A stretch of DNA of 62,591 nt, counting the filler, from Stramenopiles sp. TOSAG23-3 (taxonomy: Eukaryota): the NCBI GenBank assembly GCA_900128585.1. It is 4 parts of 4 records of this genome, joined end to end, with 100 filler letters (N's around TTAATTAATTAA, not from the genome) between each part and the next. Parts side by side here need not be neighbours in the genome. Positions count along the whole stretch, not along the records: positions 1 to 15,668 come from LT642515.1; positions 15,769 to 31,372 come from LT642516.1; positions 31,473 to 46,982 come from LT642518.1; positions 47,083 to 62,591 come from LT642519.1. The stretch is one strand, 5' to 3'. The translations under genes and the position numbers were made by a program. Below are positions 4,321 through 62,591 of this stretch, piece after piece; the stretch's first letter is position 1, and every line of letters starts with the position of its first letter. Below the pieces are notes generated by a model. The model saw only the letters and a list, made by a program, of their open reading frames with translations, was not told the origin of the DNA and ran no database searches.

Positions 4321-4415
4321 AAATCTCAGAGGAGCAGGAGATAAGTTCGCAGTATATGAAGAGACGATAAATTTTAAACCACTAAAACTTAAATAACAGG
4401 CAATGTTTTGCTTTT
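4321..4415 (+). repeat. Degenerate copy of the convergent-intergenic repeat
   Basis: ttcgcagtatatgaaga...taaattttaa...acttaaataacaggcaatgttttgctttt aligns by eye with 54559-54656. Confidence 0.6.
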
Positions 4416-4559
4416 AATTAACGATATGATGTCTGATTAAACGTTAATTTAAATTCTGAAAGATATTACGTAATATTTCTTAACTCCTCTAAAACTACTC
4501 CTTTGCAACTCCGCAACAACTAATATATTTCGGTAATAGTTTTTGATCATTTTAAAACT

Positions 4560-7500
4560 TTAGCTCTCTCCGCCATCAATTTTCGCGCGATAAACGCTCA
4601 ACTCTTGGCGTGTCTGCTCGATCCTGTCATAAATGGATTTCTGTCCGTTGTACGCCTCGTTTGAATCCACGTTACAGCTTAAGGCGGGGTGAAGTGTCGA
4701 GGACACCCATTTTTGACCCTGGCCAAACGTGGCCGACATGGACGCAACCCCAGTGGTGAGGGATGGTGTGTGCGTTTTCCAGGATGGGATTGGCGGGTTG
4801 GCGCTTCGCCCGTCTTCAAAGAGAGTGTTGTAATGTTCGCTTCGTCCTTTTGTCGTATGCCCGACCATAGCGGCGAGGGTCGCACCGGAGGGGTGGTTTG
4901 TATCGATGTGGAACTCTGTCATGGTCAGTTCGAGCTCACGGACCCGTTGCAGCCTTAACTCCACTTCCCTCTCCAAGGCAGCGTTCTTTTCGCTCAAAGT
5001 CTGGGTGATGGCCTCTGCGTCTACGAGCTTCTTCTCCAATACTTCCTTTTCAGAAAGCGCCTTTTTAAACGCAGGCTGGATCTGACGCGCGCGATCTCCG
5101 CTGCTTTTCATTCGTTGCGCCATGGCTTGGAATTTCCCCTCAAATTTGCTGGTTGTTAGTCGCAACAGTGCTTCTGTCTCCGCGGCCCGGCGCTCGCTTT
5201 CGTCGGCGCGCTGAAGCGCCGCTACCAAGCTCTTTCGTACGTCTTTCTCTGCAGCATTTGCGGTAAGCGATATTGTTTTCAGTCGTTCTTCGGACAGCGA
5301 CGCTCGCTTTAGTGCTGCGGCCAGTTTGGTCGCCAGCTCGTTTCGTCGCAGCTCCGATTTCCCCCGGATTTGACCGATGCGTTTCTCAGCCTTTTGTAAA
5401 CGGTCCAAGGCCACTGCTAGTTCGCCCTGAAACTTTGTCTCTGCGTCTTGCAGAGCCTGCTCTGCTTCCACCGCTCGGGCCTCGGTTGCACCAGCATTTT
5501 CCAGCGCTTCCTGCAGCGCCGATTCACCTTGAGAAAACGTTGCTTCCATTTTCTTTACCTGCACCTTCAGGGAATGCTCGCGTTCCATCACAGTAACCAT
5601 TTCTTGCTCCATCGTGCCCATTGCATCGGTCAAATCATCCAGCCCTTTCTCTGCGGCCTCCGCTCGTGCGTGCAGCGAAGCGTTTTCGGCCAAAAGCTCT
5701 TGGTACGCTTTCGTCTGCTGTTTCTGGTCCTGCAGCTCACTGGTCAAATCGCCGACTTCCTTCTTAAGGTCGTTTATTTTTTTTACATGCTGCCGGACTT
5801 GGGTGTTGCTCTCGCTTCGGTACTTTAGGACTTGTGCTTGCCGCCGCAAGCGGTCGATCGAACAGGCTACTGCCGTCCCTATATCGACCAAGTCGTCGAC
5901 CAGGTTGTCATCAAATTCCAACTTCATGTTGGCGATTTCTATGGCACCCAAAACGTTGTCAATTAATTTACTTCTTGGGTCCAAATCGTTCTGTGTCCCT
6001 TTCACTTTTGATCGATCCCGATCTTGGCCGTGAAAGGCCCCTTTCTTCTCCGTCTGGAGGTCCACCCCCACCCGAAAGGATACGAGGCTGTCTAAAATAT
6101 TGTTGTAATTGTTGCCCAGAGTCTCTTTCAAGGCAGGCGAAGCCCCGAAGAAGTTGGCCGCTACATCGCCACGATCGTCCGCGCCTACAACTGCCTGGGG
6201 CTGCGTGGGGTTGCAAATTCGAAGTATATATGGATAAAATACGCTGCGGGATATGGTTGTGGTCGCATCGGGGTCTACATTAATGCGCATGTCGTTGTCC
6301 AAGTTGACGAGCTGCTGCTTCATTGCATCGTACAAAAATATGTGAATTGCGTCTGCTTGGAGTATGCGGATCAGCCGCTCGCACACGTAGTGCAGCGCCG
6401 AGTGTATGGTCCGACAGTTGGACAGCCCGACAATCATGCGCAAAATGTCTTGGTGGCGTTTGGACCGCTGGCTCGCTTGATGCTGCGTCTGGATGCGGCG
6501 GTTGGCCCGAAGTGCCATGGCACTTGCTTTTTTGTTAAGATTTTCCAGCGTACGCTGGTAAAACAAACCGTTCAGGGAGAGCCGGGCAAAGAGGTCCATC
6601 ATGTCCATGTCTGTTTTTTGGAAAGGGGTCGAACTCCTGTTGCCCGCTCGAATGACCAAAAGTACCCCAAAAGCAGGGCCGTTGTTCGGGGTCAGCATTG
6701 GCACCCCTAAAATTTGCATCGGCGTTTTTTGCGTAAATTTTTCGACATCAATATTTGATAAATTTTGATGATTCCTCAGTCCTCGAGATTGAAAGACCAG
6801 GCCCATCCGCTTCGATAAGCCCAAATCCTTCATGCCCCTGCCGGCTTTTCTGCGGAGCATTTTGCCCTGTTTTAATACTTGAAAAACAAAAGGGGCGTCG
6901 TTCTCGTCCAGCACAACTGGCTGCAGTGCCAAGCCCCGGGCGTCTACGGCGGCGTCCTCAATCGGGGCGCTACTGGCGTTTGCAATTTCGTCGAATTCCA
7001 CCTGATCGTCACCTTTCTCTTCGTACAAGGTGGTACTCCCAAACCCGATCCCGCTGTCGGCAAGGCCGTCCCGGGTGGTGCCCCATCCGTCTGCCCCTGC
7101 ATTGCTCGCGTTCAGTACAGACGCGTCGACGACAGTGACCATTTTCTTTAAGGACCCCAAGCTACCCGGGCCGCGCAAAAGAACGATCGCGGTCGTAGCC
7201 GCCATTAGCGTTATGGCGTTGCTCTCAATTTTACGAATCAGCTCCAGACCGTCGGTGTTTGTTTTGTTGAGGGCCCCAATGTTGTTGATCGTTTCGTCGT
7301 ACACATTGTCGTGGAACAAAGACGCGCACACGTCCGCCCCCGCCGTTGCGGCAGTGTGGTACCGGTGTATTGCGAGCATCCTCTCCTTGCTGTGGCTTCG
7401 GCTTTCCTGAAGCTGCTCTTGCAACGTGGCCAATGCTTCCGATGCTTCCGCCATGCCGTCGCAGCACGTGCGCAGGGTTTCAAAGTGGGACACTGCGTTT

Positions 7501-9456
7501 GCTGTGTGCTTCAGCCATACCGAAACAAGCGCTTCTTCTTCGACCGTCATAACATGTTTTGGCGCTCTGTGCGTGTCGTTCTTTGTCCCATCTGTTGCTA
7601 CAGCGTCCATCTCCTGGACAGTGGCACATTCGATAATGCCAACGGCCACGACCTGGCCGCTATCCGATCGTGCCACTACGCAAACATGCCTTCCCACGCG
7701 CTGGGGTTCGCCAGTAGCCGCCGTGTTCCCCACGAGCCCATGGCCGACTTTGCACACTATTTTTCCGGGCAGTTCATTCTGCGAAACCAGCTGCGCCTTT
7801 GTTAAGGCGCCAGGGGACTCCACTACGCCGTCGCTGGGCGAGGGCGGTTTCGGGCGCCGTACGCTCCACAGCTTCCGCCCCCCGCGCTGGACAATGTACA
7901 ACTGCCCGCTGATGACGTTGGTGCTGCGAAGCAGGGTCTTGCACTCGTTGTCAAAAATACGAAATACGTCTTCAGTGGAGGTCGCGGAATTCCAAAGCTT
8001 CTCAATGCTGTGCAATATTCCGGCTCGTCTTCTCGTGCTGTTGAGCCTTCGCCGCAGTCCAAAGATCCCTACCCGGCCAGCGTGCCGCTGATACACGCCC
8101 AGGGTTGCGAGCGCGACGTGCGCCGCAAAATCTCGCAGCAGCGACATAAGCTTCGACAGGCTAATGGCATCCTCCCCGGTACCGCTCAGGACCAACATCC
8201 CAACAACTTTTCCGCCGGGTGACTGCGCCGGAACTAACAGAAATGGGGTCCTCCCGTCGTCCACGCTCTCGTGGCGCGTGGGGGCCGGGGTCAGCATATT
8301 TACATCCAGTCGGCCGTCCGAAAGCTCGGCCTCCGTGGGCTCGCCAGCGCCGTCTTCGGCTCCCCCCCCCCGTTGTCCCATTCAACAGAGAGACGAACGT
8401 TTTGTTGTCCATTTGAGTGGGCTCCCCACTCTCAACGATGCGTTTGATCGATCCCGTAAGGGGTAAAATAGATTTCTCTTCCGGTCGCGCCCGATCTAAC
8501 GTCCACAGGTATGGCATTCCGGGGCCGGGATTCCCATCCACGTGCGAACTGCGGCGCCCACCACTGCCATTGAATGATACCGATTCTAGTGGCGTATCGT
8601 TCGCGTTCAAAACATACCACACGGCGAATTCTGCTGTCCCACTGATAACTTGGGCTGCCGTAGGAACCAAAGAAAAAAGATCCGAAAAATCATGGTCCAT
8701 TGCTCGGTCTCCGCCACGATGGCCCCCAGCCGGCGAGCCGGCCTCCATCCTCTCGGCGCTTTGCACTTCCGGGTCCCTCGTGCTCTTGCAGGACCACGCC
8801 GCGAGCGACGATATGCATCGGACCAGGCGCCGTTCGTACTCCAGTTCTAACTGTACCTCTTTCTGGCGCACTTTTGCCATCTCTTGCTTTTCCCCAATTT
8901 GTGACAAGTGCAAAGTGTTCTCGGCCAACTTGCTGCAGTAGTTGAAGCAAAACGCAATGTGGACGCACACGGATCGCAAGAGGAGTATTTCGTCGGTCGA
9001 GAACGGGGGAAGAAACTTTCCGTAACTATCCCGTTGCATCGGCACGGAGTTTACTTCCAGGACGCCGAGGACCGTGTCGTCTCCGCCAGCGTCAAAGACC
9101 ACAGGAAGCAGCACCGCGCGGTTCCCGTGCCGGACGACCCGGTTCGTTCTCACTGTAACGCCAACGTGCCCGGCGTCCAAGCTCGTCCACACCCGCCCTT
9201 GCTCGTCGGGGGCACTGCGAGTCCCATCCCCATCGACGTGGACCGTCCACGTCATTTGTTTGCTATGATCGGCTACATGAAGTTTTGAACTTGACCCGTT
9301 GTTGCAAAGGCTGTAGACTTGGGCGTGCACAACACCACACAAGAACCCTAACCCCCGAGAGGGCTGGAGTGACTCGACCACGTGGAGCAAACGCTTCATG
9401 TGAGACGATACGGTCGACGAATCGACGGACCGATTGGATTCCGAGTACAACGACAT
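4560..9456 (-). CDS. Large multi-GAF-domain coiled-coil protein (ORFs 8161-9456 and 4560-8381 joined by a 1-nt frameshift at a G homopolymer, about 8362-8371)
   Basis: GAF-like segments (GHVGVTVRT...LLPVV...VLGVLEVN...FSTDEILLLRSVC; ILGVPMLTP...FGVLLVIR...FQKTDMDMM) in both ORFs; long C-terminal coiled coil; removing one G from the run fuses the frames. Confidence 0.75.
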
Positions 9457-10210
9457 GAGACAATGACAATATTTAATAAATAAATAAACAAATCAACCCT
9501 GTATAAACACGTTCTCCAGGGAAGCTGGGGAGGATTACACCTACAACAATAGGACGCGTGCAAATGCAAACGCAGAGACCTTGCACTTTTCAATAAAAAC
9601 ACCCTTCCGTCCGTCCGTCGGTCCGTCGATTGTCAATTTCAAACACAAATATTACCAACCCCAAAAACCAAAACAAATACAAACGAAGAAGCAACACACT
9701 GAAACAAACAACAATTTAATTCTTCTTCAACCAATCATGATTCGTTCAACCCATTCTTCTTCTGTGAAATTCAAACATTTCAACTTCAATTTCAATCCTC
9801 CTTTTGATGATAATAAAGAAAGAATTGAATTTAATTTTTTATTATTTTATTATTTTTTTTAAATTTCAAAAAATCGTAATAATTCTTAGTATACATAATT
9901 AATATACTTATATTTATTAAATCCCTATTATGTTTGTGATTTTTAAAATCTTCCGGATGATTGTTTGATTGTTGGTTGTTCTTCTTTACTATACCGGTCG
10001 GTGGTTCGGTTTTCTTTTTCATTGATTTGTTGTCTATATGATATAGTGATGGACAAAGAAAGAATTGAATTGGATTGAATTAAATGGAGGAGAAGAAATG
10101 AGCAAAAAAGGTTTTGTGGTTGTGTGTTTCAACTTAACGTCGTGGATTTTTATCTGCTCCAAACTGTATTCATTTGGCTGGGTTGTTGGAGGGGGTGCGC
10201 GTTTTTCAGT

Positions 10211-12157
10211 ATGAGGGTTTCCTCGGTTGCCTTGTGGGTTTTGTTGTTGCAACTTGGGGTTCTACGTCCTGTCGTTCCGAAACCAGCGAAACGGGGAAAG
10301 AAGAAGATTAAATTTCGGTCCCTGCCGAAAGAAGGAAAGTGCACGGAGGGGAAGTGCATTGATTCGGTCGGAACGTGGACGTGGCCTACGGCGGACCAGT
10401 ACAAGGGTAACTTCGACGCTGATGGGGTGCGCAGTGGCCCGGGACTGTTTCAATGGAACCAAACGAAAGACATCTACGAAGGAACCTTCAAAAATGGCCT
10501 GCCCTCAGGTGTAGGTTTGTACATGTGGGGTACAGATACCCAACGATACATCGGGCAGTTTGAAAAGGGCCGCAAGAGTGGGCTCGGGGTGTACCGAAAT
10601 GTAGAAACAGGGGAAACGTACGCTGGCGAATTCAAGAACGGGTTGTTCTCGGGGTACGGGCGTTTAATTTTTGACAATGGAACTATCCTCGAAGGAAAGT
10701 TTTTGAAGGGGTGGCCGGATGGGGTAGGAAAACGCGCAGTGAGAAAGAAGCATAAAACGGGGGGGGAGAAAGAAAGCTTCCAAGAAACGGGCGTGTACTA
10801 CGGCCAATTCTCCCGTGGCCGACGGCATGGGTATGGAGTCTCGCTCGGCGACAACGATGCCACGCATTCGGGCCGTTTCAACGAAGGCGCGCCATTTCGG
10901 TATGCCGTGTACAAGACGGTCAACACGAGGGGGGGGGCGGGGGGGGAACAGGACTACAAAACGTACATGGGAACGTATTCCCACGGATTTCACGGCCACG
11001 CCGCATTGAACTTTACCGACTTGAGCGGCGAAGGGGAGGGGGAGGCTTACCACGTGTACTACGGGGAAGCTAGCAGTGGTATGTCAAACGGTTACGGTCA
11101 ATGGGAGTACTCCAATGGGGAAGTGTACATTGGAGAAACAAAAGATGGAATGCGGCATGGCCAAGGCGTTCTCACATCTTGGTATGGGGACCGGCTTTCT
11201 GGAAACTGGAGCCAAGATAGTTTCGTGTTCGGTACAAAATCGGGGCCAACGTATGCCATGGGGAGCTTTGCTGGAGAATTCAATGGCTCGGGGCAGTTCC
11301 AGTTCGGGAAAGCAGTGACCAGCGACGGAAATGTTTACGAAGGGGAGTATTATAGCGGTTCTCCGAGCGGCTTTGGTGTCGCAACAAGCATCGATGGAAC
11401 CAAGTACTGTGGCGAGTTCAAAACTGGGCAACGCGACGGTTATGGGGTGTTCTATGAAAAACGGGAGAGGGACGTTCCCACGGTACCGCCCGTTCCAGAT
11501 CGGGCGGAAAGCCAGTCTCAGACCATACCGTACTATGCCCCCCTGTATGCAGGGCTGTGGTACCAAAATAAATTCGTGGAGGTGACCGAACCCCGAGGTG
11601 AGGATGATGGCGCCGACGGCGGTGCGGGGCCTCTAGAAGGAGACGTGCAGGGCAAAACAGAAGATTTGAGTGCCAAAGACATAGCAGACATGAAGCAACG
11701 CGCCCACGATACTGGGTTTCAGGCGCAACAGATACAGCAACGATCCCGATCCCTGGCGACGGGCGCAATCGAGGCGAGCCGGCGAGCGCAGTACGTTGTT
11801 GCAAACAATGAGAGCAAGCTACACGTTGAGTTGGGCCGTAACATGTCACGGCTTGCAAAAATAAGCCACAGCCAAGCCAGCCAAGTGATGGCAAAGGCGG
11901 AAAAACAAATGAGTGTGATCGCAAAAGTAGTCCAGAGCGCGAAAAAAATCGAGCGAATGGTGGCAAAGGCCAGCAAACTGCTGACGAGAAAGCAGCGAGC
12001 AATGGAACGAAAGAAAAAGGCTCTTGAAAAGAAGCGCGAAGAAGAAGAATCTGAGAAAAAGGCGATTGAGGAAATGGGGAAAGAGGGGGTGAAGAAGCGA
12101 AAGAAAAACAAAATGAAGGGAAAACGAAAGAAACAGTCGGGGAAGAAGGCCCCGTAG
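10211..12157 (+). CDS. MORN-repeat protein with N-terminal signal peptide and basic coiled-coil tail
   Basis: Many YxGxFxxGxxxGxG repeats; ATG at 10211 starts MRVSSVALWVLLLQLGVL. Confidence 0.85.
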   Translation: MRVSSVALWVLLLQLGVLRPVVPKPAKRGKKKIKFRSLPKEGKCTEGKCIDSVGTWTWPTADQYKGNFDADGVRSGPGLFQWNQTKDIYEGTFKNGLPSGVGLYMWGTDTQRYIGQFEKGRKSGLGVYRNVETGETYAGEFKNGLFSGYGRLIFDNGTILEGKFLKGWPDGVGKRAVRKKHKTGGEKESFQETGVYYGQFSRGRRHGYGVSLGDNDATHSGRFNEGAPFRYAVYKTVNTRGGAGGEQDYKTYMGTYSHGFHGHAALNFTDLSGEGEGEAYHVYYGEASSGMSNGYGQWEYSNGEVYIGETKDGMRHGQGVLTSWYGDRLSGNWSQDSFVFGTKSGPTYAMGSFAGEFNGSGQFQFGKAVTSDGNVYEGEYYSGSPSGFGVATSIDGTKYCGEFKTGQRDGYGVFYEKRERDVPTVPPVPDRAESQSQTIPYYAPLYAGLWYQNKFVEVTEPRGEDDGADGGAGPLEGDVQGKTEDLSAKDIADMKQRAHDTGFQAQQIQQRSRSLATGAIEASRRAQYVVANNESKLHVELGRNMSRLAKISHSQASQVMAKAEKQMSVIAKVVQSAKKIERMVAKASKLLTRKQRAMERKKKALEKKREEEESEKKAIEEMGKEGVKKRKKNKMKGKRKKQSGKKAP

Positions 12158-12309
12158 ATTACGTTTGCGTTTCTCAGCCCCGCATAGTGTTTAACAACAT
12201 AAAAACTTAAGACACTTTTCTACTAGTGTTGTGTGTGTGTAAAAACTTTTCTTCAGTGGCTCTTGCCTACCACGCGCACGCCGCAATCTCGGCCTCCATC
12301 CGCCCCCTA

Positions 12310-12864
12310 TTACGCCTGAAGGAGGTCGTAATCGTCCAGTCTATCGTTGTATTTGTCTACTGTACGTTTGACCTTGGAACTATCGACCCACGCAACGTGG
12401 TCCTCCATGCTTCGCGTCACTAAAAACCCTGGGTCTTTTACCGTCACAGGGCCGACGCGGAAGTGGCCGTGCTCGATAAACGTCACCGCCTCCTTCAACG
12501 TTTCGCAGAACTTTAAGCGCACTACCACTACGCTAAAGCGGCGCCGGCACAGCGCGGACGCCGGTAGCTTTTCACACACGCTCAGACTCTTCTTCGTCGT
12601 GGTCAGCCCCATAAAGTACAGCTTGTCCAGCAAAAAGTTGGTTATCTGAATGCGCTTTTCGTCCGCTTTGTCCATCGACTTTAGTTTGTTGACAAGCTTT
12701 GTTATCATACCGCACACTTTGTTGTACTCGTGATAGTCCTGCCGATTGTTTATGTGGTACCGTCGCATTACTTGTATCTCTCTCAAATTGTTTTCCCGCT
12801 GCCACAGAAAATCAACCTTTTTCAGAAGCTTTTTCTCATGATGCTTCAGTTTACGCATCGACAT
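12310..12864 (-). CDS. IMP3: U3 snoRNP protein IMP3 (S4-domain SSU processome factor)
   Basis: MRKLKHHEKKLLKKVDF...DYHEYNKVCG...SALCRRR...EHGHFRVGP...DPGFLVTRSMED...DDYDL; start at 12864 or 12858. Confidence 0.95.
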   Translation of the reverse strand: MSMRKLKHHEKKLLKKVDFLWQRENNLREIQVMRRYHINNRQDYHEYNKVCGMITKLVNKLKSMDKADEKRIQITNFLLDKLYFMGLTTTKKSLSVCEKLPASALCRRRFSVVVVRLKFCETLKEAVTFIEHGHFRVGPVTVKDPGFLVTRSMEDHVAWVDSSKVKRTVDKYNDRLDDYDLLQA

Positions 12865-14279
12865 GTTGCTGACTATAAAGGTGAAGGAAACGTATTTACA
12901 GACAATTGCTACCAAACGATAAAAAAAAACGACGACCTTGCTATTTGCGTAGAACGGCGAAGTACTTACAGAGTCTACGTATTTATCCTCACGACGACAA
13001 CAGTGGTAAAACCCTTCCAACACTATTCCTTCGTACTTATAAATTTAAACACAAACAATGGATCAATTTCGTTCCTCTTTTATTACCTCCCTCCTTCTGT
13101 TTCTACCTTTTACTTCCCGTTCACACACGTTACAATGTTTCCATTCACCATGTCATTCAATTCACTTTATTACTTCTTCCTTTCGGGCAAACAAAACAAA
13201 ACAAAACAAAACAATAATCGTCTTTTCTTCTTCTTTCTTCTTCGCGGAAAAATGTATATAATTTAAGGATATATGTTATATAAAATATATAAATACCATG
13301 TATTAAAAACTTAAATAGCCTTAATTTTAAATGGAAGGAAAGGCACCACAAATTGATGTATACATTACACAGCATAAGAAACTTCCAAACTTACGTATTT
13401 ATGCTGTGACCTGTATGTTAAGTGCTGTGTCCATATAAATAGAGAATACAAGTTTTAATTTAGGAATATATATATAGACATAGCATTGTAGTTTAACCTA
13501 ATACATGGAATACCATTGTAGTAAAAGACCTAATCCTAACCGTAGGTTCGAGGCTCTCTAAAAAAATCTTTCGAATAGTATACGATGAAATTGTACTTAA
13601 ATATTTTATTGACCTATATAATCCATAACAAACCTAAAAAAATTATTATCCAAAAATAAAAAAATTATCCAAAAATTCAAACCAATAATATTGTACATTA
13701 CTTATTAGATGATTAATAATAGAAATCAATACCAATTTAAGACTTAGTATTTTCTCAGTAAAAAACAACATAACATATCAAAACTTGAAAAGAAGTGGAA
13801 AAAAGATAATTTTTTTTAGAAAAGAAGTTTTATAAAAGAAGAAAAAGAAGTTTTAATGGATTTAAGTTTCTAATTAATTAATACTAAATAGCAAAGGAGA
13901 AGAAGTCTAAAGACTGGCTTGGCTGGTTGGTGGTGTGACGAATGATAACTTAATTAATACTAAATACAATGGAATATAAATAATGGATATTTATTGGATA
14001 TTTAGATATTATTATTATTATTATTGTTATTTTTAGTCTGGAATTTTTTATTAAACAAACTATTATATAACTAACACAACAAACAAAAAAGAAAGAAAGA
14101 AAGAAAGAACAATGGAGAAGAACAAGTATGTATATACCTCCGGATTCACAAGATCCAAAGTAAAAGTAAAAAATATAATTGATTAAACGGGACGTTTTAT
14201 TGTTAATCTTTAGATATTTAAAACTATCACTAGAACAAAACCATTTTGCAACGAACTGAATCGTTTTGTAATCATCATC

Positions 14280-22493: not shown

Positions 22494-22527
22494 TGGAACG
22501 AGGGCTGATGGATGGTGGAACAGTTAC

Positions 22528-35513: not shown

Positions 35514-35545
35514 ATTTTATAATTGAGAAACCTGAGTTAAAATTT

Positions 35546-47082: not shown

Positions 47083-47152
47083 AGAGGGGTACCGTAGTAT
47101 TATTAATTGAGATGATAGATAAGATTAAATTTTTGATTTTAACGTGTAGCTT

Positions 47153-47977: not shown

Positions 47978-49004
47978 AAACCAATGTGAATTTTTACAAC
48001 GAAGGTGCCGTGTCGAACCTGTACTTTTCTTTCCAAATCAGCACTGCAGAACACTACAATTTGACCATAACGTTTTTCTTCGGAACCATACGATAATGCT
48101 TCGTTGTCTTTTTCAGTTGTTTTTTCAATGGGTATATTTCACATCGTCTGGAACGAATTAATGTTTGTTTCTTGCAACCGAAAACCAACTTAGAATGAAC
48201 TGCAACAATTAAAAACTACAAAGAAGTACCGACGAAGAGAAGAACGAAGGAACTTCTTTTCGCGCCGTTCGTTCGTTCGTAGCAATACAAATATTAGTAT
48301 TTAATACAGTCCAGGAGTAGGAAATATATTATAATAATAATAATAAAAAAAAAAAATAATTTTTTTTTAAAAATGGAGGAGCAGCGAGCAGCAGCCGACA
48401 AGAAGATCATGCTGTGAATCAAATCAATCAATTTCAAAATGATGCTATGAGTATGAGTATCTCTATATAAAAATTAAATACAATAAACTAGTACTAGTCG
48501 TCTTTCTATTTATTATTTGAGGAACACTTCCTCCAATTGTATTAATATGTACACTTGGCAGCTGTTATTCTTATATCGATATATTAATTTAAATTATTTA
48601 TTCTTTTAATGAAAGGAAAAAATAACCGCCGTCGTTTTAGTACAATAAGATAGTATTATAGTGTTATTAATAGCAGTCTTCAATTGGCCTGGCCTCCTGC
48701 TGCCTGATACCGTACTGTCTAATATTCGTATAGTTAACAAACAACTACGGTAAAAATAATAACAACACGGGTGGTGGTAGTAATAATAATAATGATAGAA
48801 TGTTTTTTCTTTATTAATTATTAGACTCTATAGATCCAATAGAGGACATGTAGTTTCAAGTTGGTAAATTTGTTTCTTACAATAGTCGATTGTTAGCTGT
48901 TGTTATATGTGAGCATTCACGATAAGGCGTATTGTGGATTGGTTTGTTCTGGGTAAATTTTGAACATCCGTTGCTGCGAGTGTGTCGAACTAGCTCTGTG
49001 AAAA

Positions 49005-51029
49005 ATGGCGGACGACGCGAAAGGTGACGGTGAAGTGCCTGTGGTGGAGGCGAGTATGGAAGACGCCATAGCGGCTGCGCTAGCGGCGATGAGCACGACA
49101 ATGACCGTTGCCGCGAGTGCCGTGAAGTTGAAGGAAAAGAAGACTAGGGGAGATGGAAATGTCGCGAAAGACGAGGGTGACCCGCGCCCCGCTGCAAAAC
49201 CGGAAGGGGCCCTTGGCGTGGCCGCGGAGAAGCCCAAAGAATCGGAAAAAATAGTCCCAACCAGACCGAAAGAGTTTCGCAAACCTGTAAATAGTGTTAC
49301 TCCGAAAGCCAGTAGAATCAGCAACCAAGCGCATGAACAGACCAAAGAGAAAATAAATGTGAAGAGGACCCAGCCAAACGCGTCCTCCAAACCGGCCCTA
49401 AAGCCGCCCATCGATGCGACGAGTGAACCTGCGTGTGCTACGGAGACGGTTGCGGCCGCCGTGGGGGGTGGACAGCGGGAGGCCAAGAAAGCCTCGCGGC
49501 CGTTGGACCGGAAACAGCGGGTGCTTCCCAAGCCTCAATCGAAAACTAGCCTTCAGCAGCAGCAGCAGAAAAAATCTAAGAACATTTTGATCACGAAAGA
49601 AACGTACGCAAACATGCCCGCAAGGCAAGAGGGGGAACGAACGAAGAAGATGAACGATTACCAACTGAAAGAGTACAAGAAGCAGCTGGAGCGTTTGACA
49701 AAGCTGAAAGACGAGAACAGCACCCTGCAGGCGTTGATTCGGGAAGAAAAAATAATAGACAAGCAGCTCAAGAAAACTGTGCTTGAAATTTCCAAGCTAA
49801 TTGACGCGAGCACGGATGCCATAGAGAATGCAGGCGTGCAGAACAAAGCAAAGTCGGACTTGGGAGAAAGCATTACTGACATTGAGCAGAAAAGTAGGGA
49901 ACAGCTTCACTACCACAAAGTGCTGAATCGAATGAACGCCCGTCTTATCGTGGAGCTGAAGACAAACCATGCGAAAAGCTACACCTTGGCGGAGGAAGAA
50001 AAGGAAGCTGGCAAAGAGTTGGCATACTTGTCGTTGCAGCGCAGTAGGCTGATGAACGTGGCGGAAGTAGCCGAGTTCGAGCTTGTCAAACAGCGAGAGG
50101 AAAATGCTGAAAAACGGCGGCTTCAGAAAGAGAAAATGCGGCAAATTAAAGTAGAAATAGATGATTTGGAAAGCATGGTTGAATTGCATAGAAAAATGGA
50201 GAAAAGATTAGAAGAGACGCGCAAGCAGGCGCTTGGAGACCTTACAGCAGACGCGGAGATTGCCCTGGTCCAAGCAGCGACGGGCAGTAGATTTAAATCG
50301 TCCTACCTGACGATAACAAACGAGTACGAAAAGAAGTTGTTGACCGAATCCCGGAGGGTCTTTGCAAAGTTCCAGAAAGCCTGCGGCCTATCGACGACCA
50401 AGGATATATTGGCACTTGATGAATCCTTCAGAAGGCACCTCAAAACGTTGCCCGAGCGCTTGAAAGAGACGCAAAAGAAAATTAAAAACGAACAGTCAAT
50501 GCTGAACCTTCACAACAGCGACTTGGACTTTTTGTCAAAGCACAAGGACAACTCGAAGGCTGGCAAGGAGGAGATGAGACTGCTGCTAGACAAGGAAATA
50601 AATGTTTTGAAAACGAAGAAGTCCACGTTAAAAGAGTTGCAGGGTGAGACAGATTATATCCGGAACATAATGTTAAAGGTCTTTCGCAGCATGCGTGCGC
50701 TCACTACAAAACTGGGCTCCATGCGCAGTAAAGTTTACAAAGATGAGGAAGTCTTAAAGAATGTACTGCCCCCCTACAGCGACGAACAGGTTAAGCAATT
50801 CTTCAAGAATTTTGAGACGGAATGCACTCTGATGGAAAGGAAACTTCCTCCAACACTTCCCCTGGACCGTACCGTAGAAGATTCGAAACAGCACTGGAAC
50901 AAGACATTGGACGAATGTTTGAATCCGTTTCAAGCCACAGCAGCAAACGATTCAGAAGAAATAAATGAATGCATCAAGTCCATGTTGAAGATGGGCAACG
51001 ACGCTCTAAAAAAATCGTTAGAGCAATGA
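49005..51029 (+). CDS. Coiled-coil protein with disordered N-terminus
   Basis: 674-aa ORF, extended E/K/Q-rich heptads; family not recognised with confidence. Confidence 0.7.
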   Translation: MADDAKGDGEVPVVEASMEDAIAAALAAMSTTMTVAASAVKLKEKKTRGDGNVAKDEGDPRPAAKPEGALGVAAEKPKESEKIVPTRPKEFRKPVNSVTPKASRISNQAHEQTKEKINVKRTQPNASSKPALKPPIDATSEPACATETVAAAVGGGQREAKKASRPLDRKQRVLPKPQSKTSLQQQQQKKSKNILITKETYANMPARQEGERTKKMNDYQLKEYKKQLERLTKLKDENSTLQALIREEKIIDKQLKKTVLEISKLIDASTDAIENAGVQNKAKSDLGESITDIEQKSREQLHYHKVLNRMNARLIVELKTNHAKSYTLAEEEKEAGKELAYLSLQRSRLMNVAEVAEFELVKQREENAEKRRLQKEKMRQIKVEIDDLESMVELHRKMEKRLEETRKQALGDLTADAEIALVQAATGSRFKSSYLTITNEYEKKLLTESRRVFAKFQKACGLSTTKDILALDESFRRHLKTLPERLKETQKKIKNEQSMLNLHNSDLDFLSKHKDNSKAGKEEMRLLLDKEINVLKTKKSTLKELQGETDYIRNIMLKVFRSMRALTTKLGSMRSKVYKDEEVLKNVLPPYSDEQVKQFFKNFETECTLMERKLPPTLPLDRTVEDSKQHWNKTLDECLNPFQATAANDSEEINECIKSMLKMGNDALKKSLEQ

Positions 51030-51088
51030 GCTAGCATGAATAAACAGGCAGCGCGTAGATACGCTTTCAGATAATTTAATATTCTAAA

Positions 51089-51122
51089 TTAATTACTGAA
51101 ATAACAGCCAATTTTCTTGTTT
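51089..51122 (+). repeat. Convergent-intergenic repeat core
   Basis: ttaattactgaaataacagccaattttcttgttt. Confidence 0.85.
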
Positions 51123-51157
51123 ATTAACAGGATGTTAAAATATGTAATAACTTATGA

Positions 51158-51200
51158 NNNNNNNNNNNNNNNNNNNNNNNNNNNNNNNNNNNNNNNNNNN
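51158..51200. other. Scaffold N gap
   Basis: 43 Ns without the TTAA linker. Confidence 0.9.
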
Positions 51201-51421
51201 CAAGAACAATGTCTCCTCCTATTACGGATCCTCCCCAAGTTCTGGTCAAGATTCCAACTGGCAAGTAAACAGCGGCTTACTTTTTTTTGAGGTGCTCGTT
51301 GTCTGTTGTACTGCTCTATGAAATAATGATCGGTATTGAGTTTGATCGTTTCGGGTGCAATAGATATATCGAGCGAGACCCATTTCCGGCAAAACCACCC
51401 TAACCCAAAAACACTTTCTTT

Positions 51422-51521
51422 AAAAACAAAAAATTGTCTGTTATTTAAAGTAATTAAAATTTAGCTTCCTCATATACTGGTACCACGAAAATGAATCTAC
51501 TCCTTTTGTCCATTAAAGGTT
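51422..51521 (-). repeat. Convergent-intergenic repeat, long form
   Basis: Reverse complement reads aaacctttaatggacaaaaggagtagattcattttcgtggtaccagtatatgaggaagctaaattttaattactttaaataacagacaattttttgttttt, closely matching 54559-54656. Confidence 0.9.
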
Positions 51522-51634
51522 TACGTTCCTTCATGTACTACGAATTTATCTCTACAGTTGTGATTTTAGTATGATAATCAACATTTTCTTTAACGCACAA
51601 TTTTGCTTTTTATCTCTCCCCCCCCGTTTTTTTT

Positions 51635-52545
51635 TCACAAAATACCAAGGGATGCCAGAGTTTCCTGTAATCGGCCGTACTGTTTCCATACCATTGTACA
51701 AAGAATACCACAACCTGGTGGGGGGTGCTCTTTCGGGTCGTATCGTATGATCAGAACGGGACGATCGGCGTCTGGGTGTCGATTCGCTCCACCGCGGTGT
51801 AGCGTTCGAGAGTCAAAACAAAACATTTCGCCGAGCTGCAGCGTGGCATGGACCGGTTTGTGGCGAACCTTCACCGAATTGCGAAAAAAATAGTCAAAGA
51901 CTCTGGACTGCCCGTGTTTGTCATGGAGACGATACGAGCCTTCCAAGATCTCCGTGGGGCCATGGTCCATCGCAACGTCGTCCAGGGCGACTACAAAGGT
52001 CAAGCTGGCAGCGGTATTGTCGACATGAAAAAATTGATTTTCGCTACCAGGTCGGCTCACAAGCAATTGGAGTTGCGTGACGTTGAACTTATCACCAAAC
52101 CCGTGATGTTCAAAGTAAGGCTTTGCGTACTCACGAAGTTGGGTTTCTATGGTTTTGACGACACCCTGCCAAGATTGATCGCAGTGATTTTGCCGCTGGG
52201 CTGCCGTCGTAAAATTGTATTTTGCGTATTCATCGTTCAGCCACAAGTGAAACCGCCCACGCGTGACTTCTATGGGCGCCCTGGACCGCACTTCAACAGC
52301 TTTCAAGCACTCCGCGTCTTTCGCGTTAATAATTGGCCCTTGAAAAAAATAGCCATTACCTAACAAATTCGCCATCTTCCCGCCCAATTTATTCCTGTTT
52401 TCTGCTGGTGTCCTTGGAGTCCCCCCCGCCCCCCCCCCCCAACGCTTTCCGCCTTGTTACCCCCATCCTTGCATTCCACAAACAACCGCAAACCTCCGAA
52501 CGCTACAACGCCACCTCCGAAGACCCTCCAACCATTTCGGATCAT
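51635..52545 (-). CDS. Phytanoyl-CoA dioxygenase (PhyH)-family Fe(II)/2OG oxygenase; frameshift at G-run 52421-52440
   Basis: QFFHVD, GPTEILEGS, FDSRTLHRGGAN, RPVL; ORF 52360-52545 supplies an ATG and a targeting-like N-terminus if one G is added to the run. Confidence 0.8.
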
Positions 52546-52952
52546 CTCTATCCTCTTCTTAGTAAAACTTATGTTTGTACAATTTTTTGGTTAACTTAAA
52601 AAATAAAACAATCGTTTCAAAAATTATCTTTAAATGGATGCAAGAACATAGGCATCGATATCTTTAAAACAATCATTCTTCTTATTACTTGTTTTAAAGA
52701 CAAAAAAAAACAAATAAAAAAATTATTATTAGCAATTATTATTTTTTTTTTCCACGACGAGAAGAAGAAAAGAAGAAGAAGAGGAGGACTACTACCCCCC
52801 GCCGTACCGTACTGGTACCGTATCTTATTACATAACATAGGTAGGGTACAGCGTTGAGATAGAAATCCCAAATATATTTGGCGGATTTTCAATAATCGAT
52901 TTGGGATTTTCAATCGATTAATTTGGAGGAGAGGGAGAACAAAAGCTTCTTT

Positions 52953-52995
52953 CTTCAGTTCTCTTCTCCTCTTCAGTTCTCTTCTCCTCTTCAGT
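52953..52995. repeat. 18-nt tandem repeat
   Basis: cttcagttctcttctcct x2 plus a partial third unit. Confidence 0.85.
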
Positions 52996-53247
52996 CCTCA
53001 CTTATTATATAATAAAATACATAAGAGATATACAGTTCTTGACCGCACTTCCTAGACTACGTTTGTTTCTGATTTGTTCAATAAATCCATGAATGAAGCA
53101 GCCAATCCATTGAGTTGGCACTGCAAATGTACAGCAATTCATTCTCCAGCGGTCGAAATAAAACGAATGCGCACTATTGAAATTGTCAACCTTTCTTTCT
53201 AATCGTGTCTCATAAAAAATACATATATTTCACACAAGAAAGCAAAT

Positions 53248-54534
53248 ATGTCTTCGTGGGCAGCCGCCGTTGCTTCCGTGGAGAGCAAACTAGTAAGCTT
53301 TGTTAAATTTGCGATCGCAAAACTTGACGCAGCGACGGAGGAACTGACAGACGAGGATCCTGAAGACAACTACCAAGAATTGTGCACCTTTGCTTACGGC
53401 ATGTCTAGGAACCTGAAAGCGACAGGCGCAGGGGCTTCTGCTCCCCTGAAAGCCGCCGTCCGCGCTGGGCTTCTTGAAGCTTGGGACATTGGAGCAGAAA
53501 AACCTGGCGTATCTTTGCGAGAAACCGGGGTGCCGGGCCTCAGAGCAGCGCTCGAAGGGCTTCTTAAAGCTGGCGGTGCGTTGGGAGAAACCGCAGCCAA
53601 GCACGAGGAAGCAGAAGCCGCACATATGGCAGCCGCGGAGGAAAACGCGTCGCAAGACACAAAGCCGTCCAACATCAAGGATATGAGCATGCAAGAGGCG
53701 TTCACCCACCTGTGGGACGTCCTGGACAAGGGAAACCGGCTGGAGTGGGGCGACGAAGGGTTTACCCTTCATTTGCAGTCAAAGGGTAGGTACAATTCGA
53801 TCCAGGACAGGTGCTCCGATCCTCTGTTTTCTTATGTGAACAAAAGTCACCCGTTTTGGAGCTCCAATGTCACAAAGGCATTTATCAACCTGCTCGACAA
53901 CTACGAAAGGGAGACGGGTAAAACAGAGAGTTTTTCGAATACAGAAAAGCGAGAAATGAGCGTTTTCATGGATGCATTCTGTGCAACGGACATCGCTCGC
54001 TTCGTTTTCAATTACTTGAAGATTCACGGAAAAGACAGGCGGACCAAGAGGATGCGCTCCATGAACGATTTCAAAAATATCATTTACGACATTTGGTTCG
54101 CACCGTACCGGCGTTTTCGTCGGAACGATTCGTCGGGGTTTGAGCACGTCTTTGTGGGGGAGGAGAAGAAAGGACAAATTATCGGGCTTCACAACTGGTT
54201 ACAATTTTACCTTGAAGAAAAGAAGGGAAACGTCAATTACCTCGGTTGGGCAGGAAAACAAGACCGCGATTACTCGGACGATTGCAACATTGTGTCCGTC
54301 AAATTCACGTGGGACGATGATGACGAAGCGGTTGAAACCAAACCAATCAGCACTATGTTGTGCGGGTCTACCGTTGAGTTTGAAATTGCAATTTTGACCC
54401 TGACCTTTTTGGGGGGCGATCAGAATGGCGACACACCGTGCATACTTGGCTCCGAGAGGTGCAAGATCACTTGCCACCCACAGCGTGCGATGGGCGGTCC
54501 AAAAATCGGGACGGCCTATATAGAGATTGCGTAG
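53248..54534 (+). CDS. ENDOU: EndoU/XendoU-family poly(U)-specific endoribonuclease with N-terminal helical extension
   Basis: LLDNYE, SSGFEHVFVGE, GLHNWLQFYLEE, KPIS...GS..EFE.A, IGTAY. Confidence 0.92.
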   Translation: MSSWAAAVASVESKLVSFVKFAIAKLDAATEELTDEDPEDNYQELCTFAYGMSRNLKATGAGASAPLKAAVRAGLLEAWDIGAEKPGVSLRETGVPGLRAALEGLLKAGGALGETAAKHEEAEAAHMAAAEENASQDTKPSNIKDMSMQEAFTHLWDVLDKGNRLEWGDEGFTLHLQSKGRYNSIQDRCSDPLFSYVNKSHPFWSSNVTKAFINLLDNYERETGKTESFSNTEKREMSVFMDAFCATDIARFVFNYLKIHGKDRRTKRMRSMNDFKNIIYDIWFAPYRRFRRNDSSGFEHVFVGEEKKGQIIGLHNWLQFYLEEKKGNVNYLGWAGKQDRDYSDDCNIVSVKFTWDDDDEAVETKPISTMLCGSTVEFEIAILTLTFLGGDQNGDTPCILGSERCKITCHPQRAMGGPKIGTAYIEIA

Positions 54535-54558
54535 CGGAGAGATCAGTAATGTAAAAGC

Positions 54559-54821
54559 AAACCTCAAATGGACCAAAGCTGAGTAGATTCATTTTCGCGG
54601 TATATGAGGAAGCCTAATTTTAATTAACTTAAAATAACAGCCAATTTTTTGTTTTTAAATAAAACAAGAAAATTGGCTGTTATTATAAGAACAAGAAAAT
54701 TGGCTGTTATTTAAGTAATTAAATTTAGCTTCCTCATAGGTGGCTGTTATAGTGCTATTAAGTAATTAAATAAAAACACCATCATAAAATTACTTAAAAA
54801 TAACAGCCAATTTTTTGTTTT
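54559..54821. repeat. Fold-back array of the convergent-intergenic repeat (5 units, both orientations)
   Basis: Forward 54559-54656, reverse 54661-54684 and 54690-54738, partial reverse 54741-54770, forward 54788-54821. Confidence 0.92.
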
Positions 54822-54917
54822 AAAAATCCTGAATGAAAAATACTACTCGTAAGTTAAGATGCTATGATACGCGCTATTCGCTCGCGCACACGAGTTTTTT
54901 CTCTCTTTTTTTCTCAA

Positions 54918-56294
54918 TTAATCTTCCTTGCCCTTCTCCTTCTCCCTTTTATAATTCTTTTCAAAGAACGCAAAAAGAACCATTAATGCGATGGCACACG
55001 AAAGAGAACAGTACGTGAACAGCTGAATTAGTTTTTTCATAGGGTTCCCTTCCTCGGTTCCCCCACTTTGTTGAAGGTATAAAACCAACACAGAACCGCC
55101 GTACCCAAATACATCCACAAAAGAATTCGACGTGGCCATGACTCGTCTTGTCGAATGCCTCATTGTCCATGTGCCCATGCACAAATAGAATGCCGGTGCT
55201 ACGGTGAAGCCTAACAAGAATGTAACCCCCACTTTCATGAGCGGGCCGGCAACCATGTGATCCTGACTACTCTCCGTCTCAAAATCCTTCAACAGTATCG
55301 AAAACAGCACGTAATTACAAAGCATTGGTGCTGCTAGCAACAGCCCTTTGTGGACATCCGATGTCACTTTGTCGAAAAAAACACCGAATATCAAAACAGA
55401 AACTAAAATACCAGCGTGCCACGCAGTTACGCCAACATTGATGTCGGTTAAATTGAGCGTTTTGTCCATGCTTAGCCAAATTGGAACTTGGCTTTGAAAC
55501 TCGGCTATTGGAGTCGTCGATGCTTGCACGAGTGCTGCCAAATAAAACGTTGGTTCGAAAATGGTGCAATCAAAAAGTTCGTTCCAAAACCTTTTCCTCT
55601 TTCCCTTCCTCTGTTCTGGCGCGTCTTTGTCAATTGTTTGGTCACTTGGCACTCCGGCCCGTCCGCTTTCCTCTCTTTTTTCCGGCTCATTTTCCAGATT
55701 CAAGCTTAGAATAATGCCGTACAAACACAACGCTATCCCACAACCTAAAAAGTTCATCTGAACGGTCGTTTTAGCGTTTAAATAGGCAATTGCGAAACTA
55801 ACTATCATCACGCCAATTCTGGACGCGGTAGACATTGCCCCCCAAGCACGGCCGTGCTCGTTTGTCGGGAACCACGCGTCAAACAAGAGATTAGACGCTG
55901 GCCAAGTAGCTGTTTGAAAAAATCGTATTAAATTCCAACCAAGAAAAATTGAGACCAGCGGAGTGTTGCTGATTGGTGTTATTATCCCACAACCAATAAT
56001 AACTACACCACAACACAACAGACTGGCCACACCGACACCGTATGGGGTTAACGCGGCAATAACTGGTCCGCTCGAAAACTTCCCAACAATAGTTACCATT
56101 GTTCCTACTGATAATAGTAAAGGAACGTCGTCCCCTTTGAAGTTTCGATACTCGTTTGTGTTGGAAATTATATTCGGTAAATTTGCCTCAAAAATCACCC
56201 GAGCAGAGCCGCTGACTAACGCGTGACAAAACCACCAAAATAGGAGAATCCTCCACCGCTTTTCGTTGGGTTCAGTTGCTACTCCACCAGTCAT
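54918..56294 (-). CDS. MFS transporter (GlpT/sugar-phosphate exchanger-like)
   Basis: About 12 TM segments; GKFSSG, FFQTATWP...WFPTNEHGRAWGAMSTASRIG. Confidence 0.88.
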   Translation of the reverse strand: MTGGVATEPNEKRWRILLFWWFCHALVSGSARVIFEANLPNIISNTNEYRNFKGDDVPLLLSVGTMVTIVGKFSSGPVIAALTPYGVGVASLLCCGVVIIGCGIITPISNTPLVSIFLGWNLIRFFQTATWPASNLLFDAWFPTNEHGRAWGAMSTASRIGVMIVSFAIAYLNAKTTVQMNFLGCGIALCLYGIILSLNLENEPEKREESGRAGVPSDQTIDKDAPEQRKGKRKRFWNELFDCTIFEPTFYLAALVQASTTPIAEFQSQVPIWLSMDKTLNLTDINVGVTAWHAGILVSVLIFGVFFDKVTSDVHKGLLLAAPMLCNYVLFSILLKDFETESSQDHMVAGPLMKVGVTFLLGFTVAPAFYLCMGTWTMRHSTRRVMATSNSFVDVFGYGGSVLVLYLQQSGGTEEGNPMKKLIQLFTYCSLSCAIALMVLFAFFEKNYKREKEKGKED

Positions 56295-57018
56295 TTTTAA
56301 CCCTCACGAAAAATAATGATACTAATCCACTCAAAACCCTTCCGCACGAACTCACTCACCGTTTATATATTTTCATCAGGTATGTTGATTATACAAAGTA
56401 CACAAAATAGTACCCACGCTTTTAAATTTGAATTATTCTCCAATCTATACTAAGAAGAAATCAATAATATATAGTTAAAATAATTTGTAAAAAGAGTTTC
56501 AAATGCAATATAATCAATTTGATTCCAAAAAAAGGGAGGCGCGTACACAAAATCAAAATCATACATAATACACTCCATCCGCGGCGGGATTTCCAATGCT
56601 AAATTTACGAAAGTGTTTTTTTGGAATCAGATCTTCTTCTTCTTCTATTTTTTTCTTTTTTTTTTTTCTTCTTTTTTCTTCTTTGTTTTATCTTACAGTC
56701 GTCTTCCTTCTCTCTGTTGTTCTGCTGCTGCTGCTTTGGTGATGTTCGTTTTAGGAGATGCGGTGGTTGTGATACTCCTAAAAAATAATAAAAAATTATT
56801 ATTAATTAGAACGAACGAAAGAAGAATTGTTGTTGAACTTGCCATTATTATTATTAGTGCCAATTATAGACGACGAGTAGTTTAAGTACACGCCGGCATT
56901 TTTGTAAGCAGTAAGTAAAAGACTAACGTAATAATTATAAAATCATGTTCAACAAATTCGGTTCTTCTATTTACTGTGAGGATTAAGAAACAAAGAAAGA
57001 GCCAGAGTCACTACAAAC

Positions 57019-58362
57019 ATGCAAAAAACTACTTTCGATGTTGCAGTTATTGGGGCGGGCGTCATTGGCACGTCCACGGCCCTTTCTTTGGCGCGACTTG
57101 GGTATCGCGTGGGCGTGTTTGATTCAAAGTCGGGAGCTGGGACTGGGACGACATCATATTCTTCAGGCATATGCCGCATGTTTTATTCTATTCCAGACAG
57201 CGTAAAGTTTGCATGGGAAGGGTACCATTATTGGAGGGAATGGGAGGATTTTGTTGCAATAAAGACTGAAGCGCACGCAAGGTTGCGAGAGTGTGGGGGG
57301 ATCCTGGTCGTTTCCGAGAACTCTCAATCGTTTATCGACAAAACTGTTCCTTGCATGGAGCAAGCAGGAGTGCCCGTAGAAGTTTGGGATCTAAACACAT
57401 CTCAAAAGAGACTGAAGAAATTAGGCGTTGATTTGTCGAAATCATTCAACCCAGCAAGGATCGACGACGCGGATTTTGGAGTGCCAAATGGGAAGCAAAT
57501 TAAAGGCGCAGTTTATTGTCCTGCAACCGGGTACGTATCAGATCCCACATTGGCAGTGCAAAATTTGATGCAAGCTGCTGGGGAGCAGGGGGCAGAGTTT
57601 TTGTTCAATAGTAAAGTGATGAGTATAAATCAAAATCAATCACGAGTGTCAGGTATAACGCTGGAAAATGGCCAGACTGTCGAAGCACCGGTGGTGTTGA
57701 ACGCAGCGGGGCCACATTCTTCCTTCATAAATGCCCTTGCTTTCCCCGGAACCGGTGATGCCGTCCCGAACGATATGTTGGTTCCAACACGCGCAATGCG
57801 GCAAGAAGTTGCATACGCAGCGCCCCCTCCCGGAGTTGACATGGACAAGGATGGAATGGTTATCACAGACTTAGATATCGGGGCGTACTGGAGACCAGAG
57901 GTTGGAAACAAAATTTTAATTGGGGGTATTGAACCGGAGTGCGACCCAGAAGAGTGGGTAGACGATATCGACGACATGAACATGGGGTTGACAGAGAATT
58001 GGACGAACTACATTTACCGTGTTGCGTTGAGGATGCCTGAAATGCCCCTCCCTACTGGCATGGGGACTCAGGGAATCGTAAGTGCGTATGATGTTACGCC
58101 GGACTGGACCCCAATATACGACAAGTCGGCACTCGGTGGCTATTACATGGCATGCGGTACAAGCGGCAATCAATTTAAAAACGCCGGTGTGGCTGGGGTT
58201 CTGATGGCAACATTGATTGACAAATGCGAGAACGGCTATGACCACGATAAAGAACCTTTGCAGTTCGAGCTCACAAAGTCAAACAGTGGAAAGTTCCTGG
58301 ACACGAAGTGTTTTTCAAGACTGCGCGATTTGAGTAATACGAGCGGCAGCGTGTTGGGATAA
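57019..58362 (+). CDS. FAD-dependent oxidoreductase, DAO/sarcosine oxidase beta-like
   Basis: VIGAGVIG Rossmann motif, GTTSYSSG, VLNAAGP, YDVTPDWTPIYD, GTSGNQFK. Confidence 0.9.
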   Translation: MQKTTFDVAVIGAGVIGTSTALSLARLGYRVGVFDSKSGAGTGTTSYSSGICRMFYSIPDSVKFAWEGYHYWREWEDFVAIKTEAHARLRECGGILVVSENSQSFIDKTVPCMEQAGVPVEVWDLNTSQKRLKKLGVDLSKSFNPARIDDADFGVPNGKQIKGAVYCPATGYVSDPTLAVQNLMQAAGEQGAEFLFNSKVMSINQNQSRVSGITLENGQTVEAPVVLNAAGPHSSFINALAFPGTGDAVPNDMLVPTRAMRQEVAYAAPPPGVDMDKDGMVITDLDIGAYWRPEVGNKILIGGIEPECDPEEWVDDIDDMNMGLTENWTNYIYRVALRMPEMPLPTGMGTQGIVSAYDVTPDWTPIYDKSALGGYYMACGTSGNQFKNAGVAGVLMATLIDKCENGYDHDKEPLQFELTKSNSGKFLDTKCFSRLRDLSNTSGSVLG

Positions 58363-58442
58363 CCCTCAGAATAATACTCAAAGCTTTAAATTAATACTTG
58401 GGAGTATGAATATTTTGATAGACTTACTCCGGTAAGAGTTAT

Positions 58443-58465
58443 AAAAACAAGAAAATTGGCTGTTA
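58443..58465 (-). repeat. Convergent-intergenic repeat core
   Basis: aaaaacaagaaaattggctgtta. Confidence 0.85.
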
Positions 58466-62590: not shown

Positions 62591-62591
62591 T

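Follow-up and report, generated by a model that had tools for sequence, protein, structure and literature searches.

We analyzed a 62,591-base stretch of the genome of Stramenopiles sp. TOSAG23-3 (the window), which consists of four contig pieces at positions 1–15668, 15769–31372, 31473–46982, and 47083–62591, separated from one another by N spacers and interrupted by two further inner N gaps, and we characterized a short dispersed repeat that lies behind its genes. The open reading frames (ORFs) of the window were long and intron-poor and carried eukaryotic domains: MORN, EF-hand with C2, IQ with Tudor, teneurin-type EGF with NHL and LCCL, and XendoU. The segment 51201–61200 was present, whole or in part, in 20 of 24 listed sequencing runs from 12 studies, and the organism-labelled runs were mostly marine metagenomes. 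The host is a marine protist with a compact genome.

A core pattern of the repeat, allowing up to three mismatches, matched the window nine times, whereas 100 dinucleotide shuffles gave no match, and the repeat proved to be real at all seven places where a first-pass annotation had noted it. A profile built from the window detected four copies of approximately 90 nt and seven shorter copies sharing their 3′ part, and a longer profile detected 12 copies that covered all seven places. The extents given in that annotation were too short, since similarity among copies continued far upstream of its 65-nt unit and into the end of an ORF. One example in the window was the long copy at 35091–35466(+) (profile positions 195–604; E = 5.7e-98) in the 3′ flank of the gene at 35546–43111(−), which had a mutated tail and a decayed ORF end, ...AWSTSENDSQD*, with its stop codon at 35343; the ORF remnant of 104 amino acids showed no Pfam domain. 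Directly behind this copy was a tail-only copy with an exact core (35478–35518(+); E = 2.1e-08; no mismatches).

Three copies in the window were truncated at the 5′ side and retained part of the upstream sequence. The copy at 4262–4422(+) (profile 421–603; E = 6e-24), which had a diverged tail, was located in the convergent spacer 4176–4559 and was flanked by an 11-nt direct repeat with one mismatch (AATGATATGAT / AACGATATGAT), and the copy at 51415–51581(−) (profile 460–603; E = 1.6e-31) had a target-site duplication in the form of a 14-nt flanking direct repeat with one mismatch (TTAAAGAAAATGTT / TTAAAGAAAGTGTT). The third, at 54555–54663(+) (profile 510–603; E = 1.9e-17), began approximately 20 nt past the stop codon of 53248–54534(+) and was followed by a tail-only copy at 54658–54684(−), a profile match placed head-to-head with it, a short copy at 54686–54736(−) (profile 547–597; E = 1.1e-12), and a tail-only copy at 54788–54827(+) (E = 5.8e-07). 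The region 54560–54825, in which these four copies alternate in orientation, was predicted to give a 266-nt transcript a strong hairpin (−78.1 kcal/mol; z = −8.4), because separate copies had been inserted in opposite orientation. Further tail-only copies were found at 22524–22568(−) (profile 559–600; E = 9.5e-05) in the convergent spacer 22494–22684, at 51089–51128(+) (E = 6.5e-08), 60 nt past the stop codon of 49005–51029(+), and at 58441–58480(−) (E = 2.8e-05) in the convergent spacer 58363–58657, where a contig from an RNA library (run X19, record 20) spanned 58287–58524 across the copy. A fragment of the body of the long element (51267–51306(−); profile 264–303; E = 1.2e-06) was located in a high-copy stretch at approximately 51233–51356, which had a depth of 890 at 51280 in the metagenomic DNA run X5, compared with approximately 4–8 on genes, and matched a metagenome locus (L025) at the protein level. 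An RNA-library contig had a loose end shortly ahead of position 51202 that resembled a diverged core in reverse orientation; therefore, the N gap at 51158–51200 probably hides another, inverted copy.

The first-pass annotation had assigned copies to six of seven convergent gene pairs and had reported none in divergent or tandem spacers. With our crude ORF-based gene calls, five of the six convergent spacers called in the window contained copies, the spacer 12158–12309 contained none, and the two copies behind 35546–43111(−) occupied one further 3′ flank. No copy was found in the seven divergent or the three tandem spacers of the window. The second of these claims therefore stood for the window, whereas in the wider sample described below a minority of copies occupied tandem spacers, near the upstream stop codon.

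To extend the sample, metagenome contigs were scanned with a 24-letter core pattern, which gave at least 132 stretches, taken as 131 loci with 565,319 bases. None of these overlapped the window at 90% identity or more; therefore, they come from elsewhere in this genome or in that of a close relative. After overlaps were merged, 118 loci and the four window pieces made up 574 kb, in which an iterated 612-column profile (E ≤ 0.001) found 243 copies. The metagenome loci had been selected for holding the core, as they were fetched by an exact core 24-mer.

The 3′ end of the element was constant, ...CCAATTTTCTTG(T)n, with 206 of the 243 copies ending at profile position 590 or beyond, whereas the 5′ starts formed a continuum from profile position 2 to 573, and copy lengths ranged from 22 to more than 600 nt (111 copies of up to 60 nt, 84 of 61–150 nt, 42 of 151–400 nt, and six longer). 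The part common to the copies was a tail of approximately 40 nt, ...AATTACTTAAATAACAGCCAATTTTCTTG(T)n, and many copies consisted of this tail alone. At least three unrelated upstream sequences, which we call heads, joined the same last 40 nt or so, and long copies contained an ORF end, ...SDEEVDYGS..TDSDHAWSTSENDSQD*. The 15-nt core was very uniform, with 189 sites having no more than one mismatch, and the tails were mutated in the longer copies of the window. Single tails had no fold of their own beyond that of shuffled sequences in the four copies tested (z = 0.69, 1.45, −0.55, and 1.29), and folding was seen in head-to-head pairs only. No terminal inverted repeats were present at the ends of the copies, and the 5′ ends differed from copy to copy.

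Insertion was examined in the 186 copies whose 3′ end was intact and whose flanking sequence extended for 45 nt in both directions. We counted exact direct repeats anchored at both boundaries, a procedure that replaced a version allowing matches inside the element, and the null was obtained by pairing each upstream flank with the downstream flank of another copy. Repeats of at least 9 nt were found at 43 copies compared with 4.1 expected, of at least 10 nt at 32 compared with 1.8, and of at least 12 nt at 14 compared with 0.8; together with the two duplications in the window, this overturned the earlier statement that no target duplication was recognizable. Ten of the 43 copies abutted another copy and were dropped, and the remaining 33 clean copies had duplications of 9–14 nt around inserts of 22–335 nt. 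Each of these 33 inserts ended in ...CTTG(T)n directly against the downstream repeat. The first base of the duplication was T in 21 cases and A in 12 and was never G or C, and the second base was A in 20, T in 11, and G in two. As is established for non-LTR (non-long terminal repeat) retrotransposons, target-primed reverse transcription leaves this combination of traits: a 3′ end that is fixed, 5′ ends truncated to varying degrees, and duplications of variable length that begin at a T/A junction.

From the graded 5′ truncation and the flanking duplications, we concluded that the repeat is very probably the common 3′ tail of a family of short retroposons of the non-LTR type, which spread by copy-and-paste, and we infer an RNA intermediate. 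According to this model, a T/A-rich target would be nicked and an RNA ending in the tail would be copied into DNA on the spot, and reverse transcription would often halt early, so that the tail would be kept and the 5′ end cut to any length, from 22 to more than 600 nt. A new copy would then sit between 9–14-nt duplications of the target. Several heads share one tail, one of them being a long form with a decayed ORF of unknown family. Of the two alternatives offered in the first-pass annotation, a termination module or a mobile element that targets such sites, mobility is thus borne out by the 5′ truncation, the constant 3′ end, and the duplications, whereas active targeting is one possibility.

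The position of the copies relative to genes was determined with gene calls scored by codon bias; the 68 loci or pieces of at least 1500 nt (538 kb) yielded 214 calls, and four of them had no call. Copies were found in 40 of 53 convergent spacers (68 copies in 33.9 kb), in 17 of 62 tandem spacers (24 copies in 47.9 kb), and in one of 35 divergent spacers (one copy in 39.2 kb), and contig ends held 34 copies in 3′ flanks and four in 5′ flanks. The remaining copies were unclassed: 93 were in loci shorter than 1500 nt, 16 were in the four loci without a called gene, and three were inside "genes" that represented the element's own ORF. Tabulated in this way, the copies were not distributed independently of gene orientation. 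Because the loci had been fetched by the core, the count was repeated on spacers without the seed word and on the window, and copies were then present in 7 of the 19 convergent spacers and in 4 of the 45 tandem spacers, whereas the 34 divergent spacers had none (Fisher's test, convergent vs. divergent, p = 3e-4; convergent vs. tandem, p = 0.012). The copies accumulated at 60–200 nt beyond the stop codon in either orientation, and most of them were in convergent spacers. The median distance from a copy to the nearest stop codon was 93.5 nt in convergent spacers, and in tandem spacers 21 of the 24 copies were closer to the upstream stop codon than to the next start codon (medians 148.5 and 726 nt). 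The copies are oriented at random with respect to genes: in tandem spacers 12 copies had the orientation of the upstream gene (sense) and 12 the opposite one (antisense), and in convergent spacers 32 of the 68 copies were nearer to the gene to which they were sense, so that there was no proximity bias.

Base composition was considered as a cause of the positional bias and was rejected, because target-like words were only approximately 1.5 times as frequent in convergent spacers as in divergent ones, and the two classes had GC contents of 0.36 and 0.34, respectively. It is roughly an even choice whether integration is drawn to termination zones or insertions are lost from promoter-bearing spacers. 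All 16 duplication-flanked copies with an assignable context were in 3′ contexts (seven in convergent spacers, two in tandem spacers, and seven in contig-end 3′ flanks), and this leans slightly to targeting, with the limit that strongly harmful insertions are never sampled among such young copies. A bolder proposal, which we put forward tentatively and consider rather unlikely, is that the machinery integrates specifically at transcription-termination zones, above all between converging genes, that the tails consequently come to lie in 3′ untranslated regions (UTRs), that mRNA 3′ ends reading into the tails are copied and pasted, and that some copies have been co-opted for 3′-end formation. 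If this were true, the copying of mRNA 3′ ends would create many heads on one tail, and the elements would be a self-reinforcing builder of gene 3′ regions. Apart from this proposal, co-option of some copies in 3′ UTRs is possible.

The near confinement of the repeat to gene ends also bears on the termination module put forward in the first-pass annotation as a means of resolving convergent transcription. In a fuller form of this reading, the core would be first of all a functional 3′-end or termination element, acting as a poly(A)-type signal or as the binding site of a roadblock protein, that is kept by selection and has spread secondarily. Such a module would account for the near restriction of copies to gene 3′ flanks in the seed-free count, for their short distance from stop codons, for a bias that target-like words and GC content do not explain, and for a core that is highly uniform across heads. 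RNA-library contigs also piled on the repeat and one bridged a copy, although such libraries can hold DNA, and the evidence consisted of assembled contigs, from which neither transcript ends nor strand could be read; stretches lacking RNA cover and the high summed depth of the repeat in these libraries carry little weight. The module is nevertheless improbable. A directional signal should be oriented, but sense and antisense copies were equal in number in tandem spacers, and fewer than half of the copies in convergent spacers were nearer their "own" gene. The flanking duplications and the graded 5′ truncation are marks of insertion events, and 13 of the 53 convergent spacers, as well as 12158–12309 in the window, had no copy. 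Because of the random orientation, these insertion signatures, the structureless tail, and the decayed tails of longer copies, the terminator reading fails as an account of the family.

Two further explanations were weighed against the retroposon model. A cut-and-paste DNA element resembling a miniature inverted-repeat transposable element (MITE), or a rolling-circle element, with a preference for these spacers would also yield short, abundant, non-coding copies near genes, and head-to-head pairs such as that at 54586–54745 form long hairpins of the kind expected from it. The hairpins, however, come from separate copies in opposite orientation, terminal inverted repeats were lacking, the 5′ ends varied on a fixed 3′ end, and the duplication length of 9–14 nt was not fixed as in a MITE; rolling-circle elements are not known to make duplications, whereas duplications are present here. 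We regard this origin as very unlikely. Equally unlikely is a conserved C-terminal exon with its 3′ UTR, belonging to a large gene family that is homogenized by gene conversion and leaves fragments on gene decay. The ORF end in long copies and the 152 database cluster representatives that matched the longest element ORF (280 amino acids, serine-rich; E ≤ 0.001) could be read in this way, but among the 150 matches listed all but one were fragments of 270 amino acids or fewer, and the 16 relatives scanned had no Pfam domain of their own. The 419-amino-acid relative (P0204), a predicted protein, had a host-type domain only, a condensing-enzyme domain of the fatty-acid-elongase type that was cut at profile position 205 of 290 and joined to the element ORF; either the element was inserted into a gene, or the gene call extends into an adjoining element. 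In addition, 111 of the 243 copies were 60 nt or shorter and lay behind unrelated genes with duplications of their own, and other heads shared the tail.

Several observations weigh against the retroposon model and should be set beside it. An ORF for a reverse transcriptase or endonuclease joined to this tail, and thus the autonomous element with the same ends that the first-pass annotation had proposed to look for, was not found in the small, tail-selected part of the genome that was searched. No tRNA, 7SL, or 5S head was identified in the window and five long-copy loci. The 3′ terminus is a T run rather than poly(A) or a microsatellite, although a poly(A) or simple-repeat terminus is common, not universal, among non-LTR retroposons. 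Exact duplications of at least 9 nt were present in only 43 of the 186 copies tested; the others may be old, or their boundaries may have been misplaced by local alignment. The uniformity of the core could reflect selection on it, although the loci had been fetched by an exact core 24-mer. The deficit in divergent spacers was more than 60-fold, which exceeds what we would expect from tolerance alone, and the gene calls behind it were crude ORF calls that did not model introns and small genes.

The search for a partner of the retroposon covered several kinds of sequence. A crude motif screen detected no reverse transcriptase, 15 ORFs upstream of long copies had no Pfam domain, and Pfam scans of 12 ORFs repeated within the 574 kb gave host families or unknown proteins and no reverse transcriptase; approximately 200 other long ORFs were outside these scans. 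As no such partner was found in the DNA examined, the copies seen are non-autonomous or dead. Comparison of the element ORF with a protein atlas returned only weak virus-labelled clusters at 0.90 with low recognition and was uninformative. The Rfam match that had been proposed as a check did not materialize either: there was no match at gathering score in the whole window, and no tRNA, 7SL, or 5S match at E ≤ 0.1 in five scanned loci of the 131, all of which hold long copies. ARAGORN detected no tRNA gene in the window.

The abundance of the family was assessed from read depth. In run X5, depth was 8587 at 54685, compared with approximately 4–8 on the flanking window genes, and bin means on the repeat reached 2995 and 10104. 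If all of this depth comes from the host, a genome equivalent contains on the order of a thousand copies, and this figure is an upper bound, since reads from relatives also contribute. Contig joints were considered as evidence for empty sites and were set aside, as the joints linked different copies of the repeat.

A second retroposon-like family with its own tail, ...GAGAGTCTTAAAACATACTATATAATTTGTTTTTT, was observed at 18 sites (L005, L012, L018, L037, L092, and others). It ended in the same TTGTTTTT as the first family, and copies of the first family were often found directly behind its T run, a placement suggestive of elements having been inserted at the ends of other elements (nested insertion). 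One metagenome contig of 24.5 kb (L018/L019/L024) held a cluster of six or more long copies, in both orientations, between host genes, together with repeated unknown ORFs, such as L019:7661–9265 (535 amino acids), which was 74% identical to L015:300–968; this contig is possibly a repeat-rich island. A typical copy, with a head and an exact tail, was also present at L132:200–330 on a 4.1-kb contig binned as a Dehalococcoidia bacterium, and this contig is most likely a mis-binned piece of the host eukaryote.

As for the host itself, no close named relative was found for two conserved proteins: the named matches of an IMP3-like protein, from green algae and others, had at most 69% identity, and those of a DnaJ protein, from scattered eukaryotes, at most 45%. 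A viral sequence collection gave no match. Two long ORFs on the same strand, 4560–8381(−) and 8161–9456(−), overlapped by 220 nt in different frames, which points to a single gene interrupted by a short intron or a frameshift.

What looked like a "eukaryotic REP element" thus becomes a retroposon family that is very abundant in the compact genome of an uncultured-type marine protist, and promoter-side spacers, although similar in composition, have virtually no copies of it. If targeting is the cause, the family would exemplify non-LTR integration directed to the ends of genes, which is rare, and if selection is the cause, the bias would gauge how little spare room the promoter spacers of streamlined genomes offer. 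In practical terms, the family breaks assemblies, inflates coverage approximately thousand-fold at copy sites, and seeds spurious short gene predictions, and it can be used to flag mis-binned contigs of the host eukaryote.

The likeness to bacterial repetitive extragenic palindromic (REP) sequences and bacterial interspersed mosaic elements (BIMEs), which the first-pass annotation had drawn, is limited to the shortness of the repeats, their dispersal, and their location in spacers at the ends of genes. A REP unit is an imperfect palindrome, whereas the single units here are not, as the four copies folded no better than shuffles; insertion duplications, 5′ truncation, and a eukaryotic host are further differences. 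A search of a limited literature library with a 13-letter piece of the core gave only a chance match in a human clinical paper, and, judged by title and abstract start, none of the papers listed from that library for retroposons of marine protists or retroposons close to convergent gene pairs concerned such a family.

In mechanism, the closest analogue would be the tail sharing of short and long interspersed elements (SINEs and LINEs). SINE/LINE pairs share a 3′ tail in the stringent type of non-LTR retrotransposition, L1-like endonucleases nick at TTTT/AA-type sites, and some plant SINEs end T-rich. The family described here resembles these pairs in having different heads on a common tail, 5′ truncation, variable-length duplications, and a T/A-rich nick site. 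It differs in that no partner LINE with a reverse transcriptase and no polymerase III-type head was found in the sequences searched, and in that it ends in a T run rather than poly(A) and has a tail without a stem-loop.

In function, the closest analogue would probably be the SIDER1/2 families of Leishmania, which the available text of three papers describes as degenerate retroposon families located mainly in 3′ UTRs (PMC2323293, PMC2689281, PMC5689007). As far as that text goes, both systems consist of non-autonomous retroposon remnants, short and degenerate, that form large families and are located mainly behind coding regions, whereas the SIDERs reside inside the 3′ UTRs of polycistronic units and have been shown to regulate mRNA stability. 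The two had no sequence relation in a comparison that left the 79-nt trypanosomatid signature outside, and the family in the present genome is distinguished by its many young copies, which have exact duplications and random orientation.

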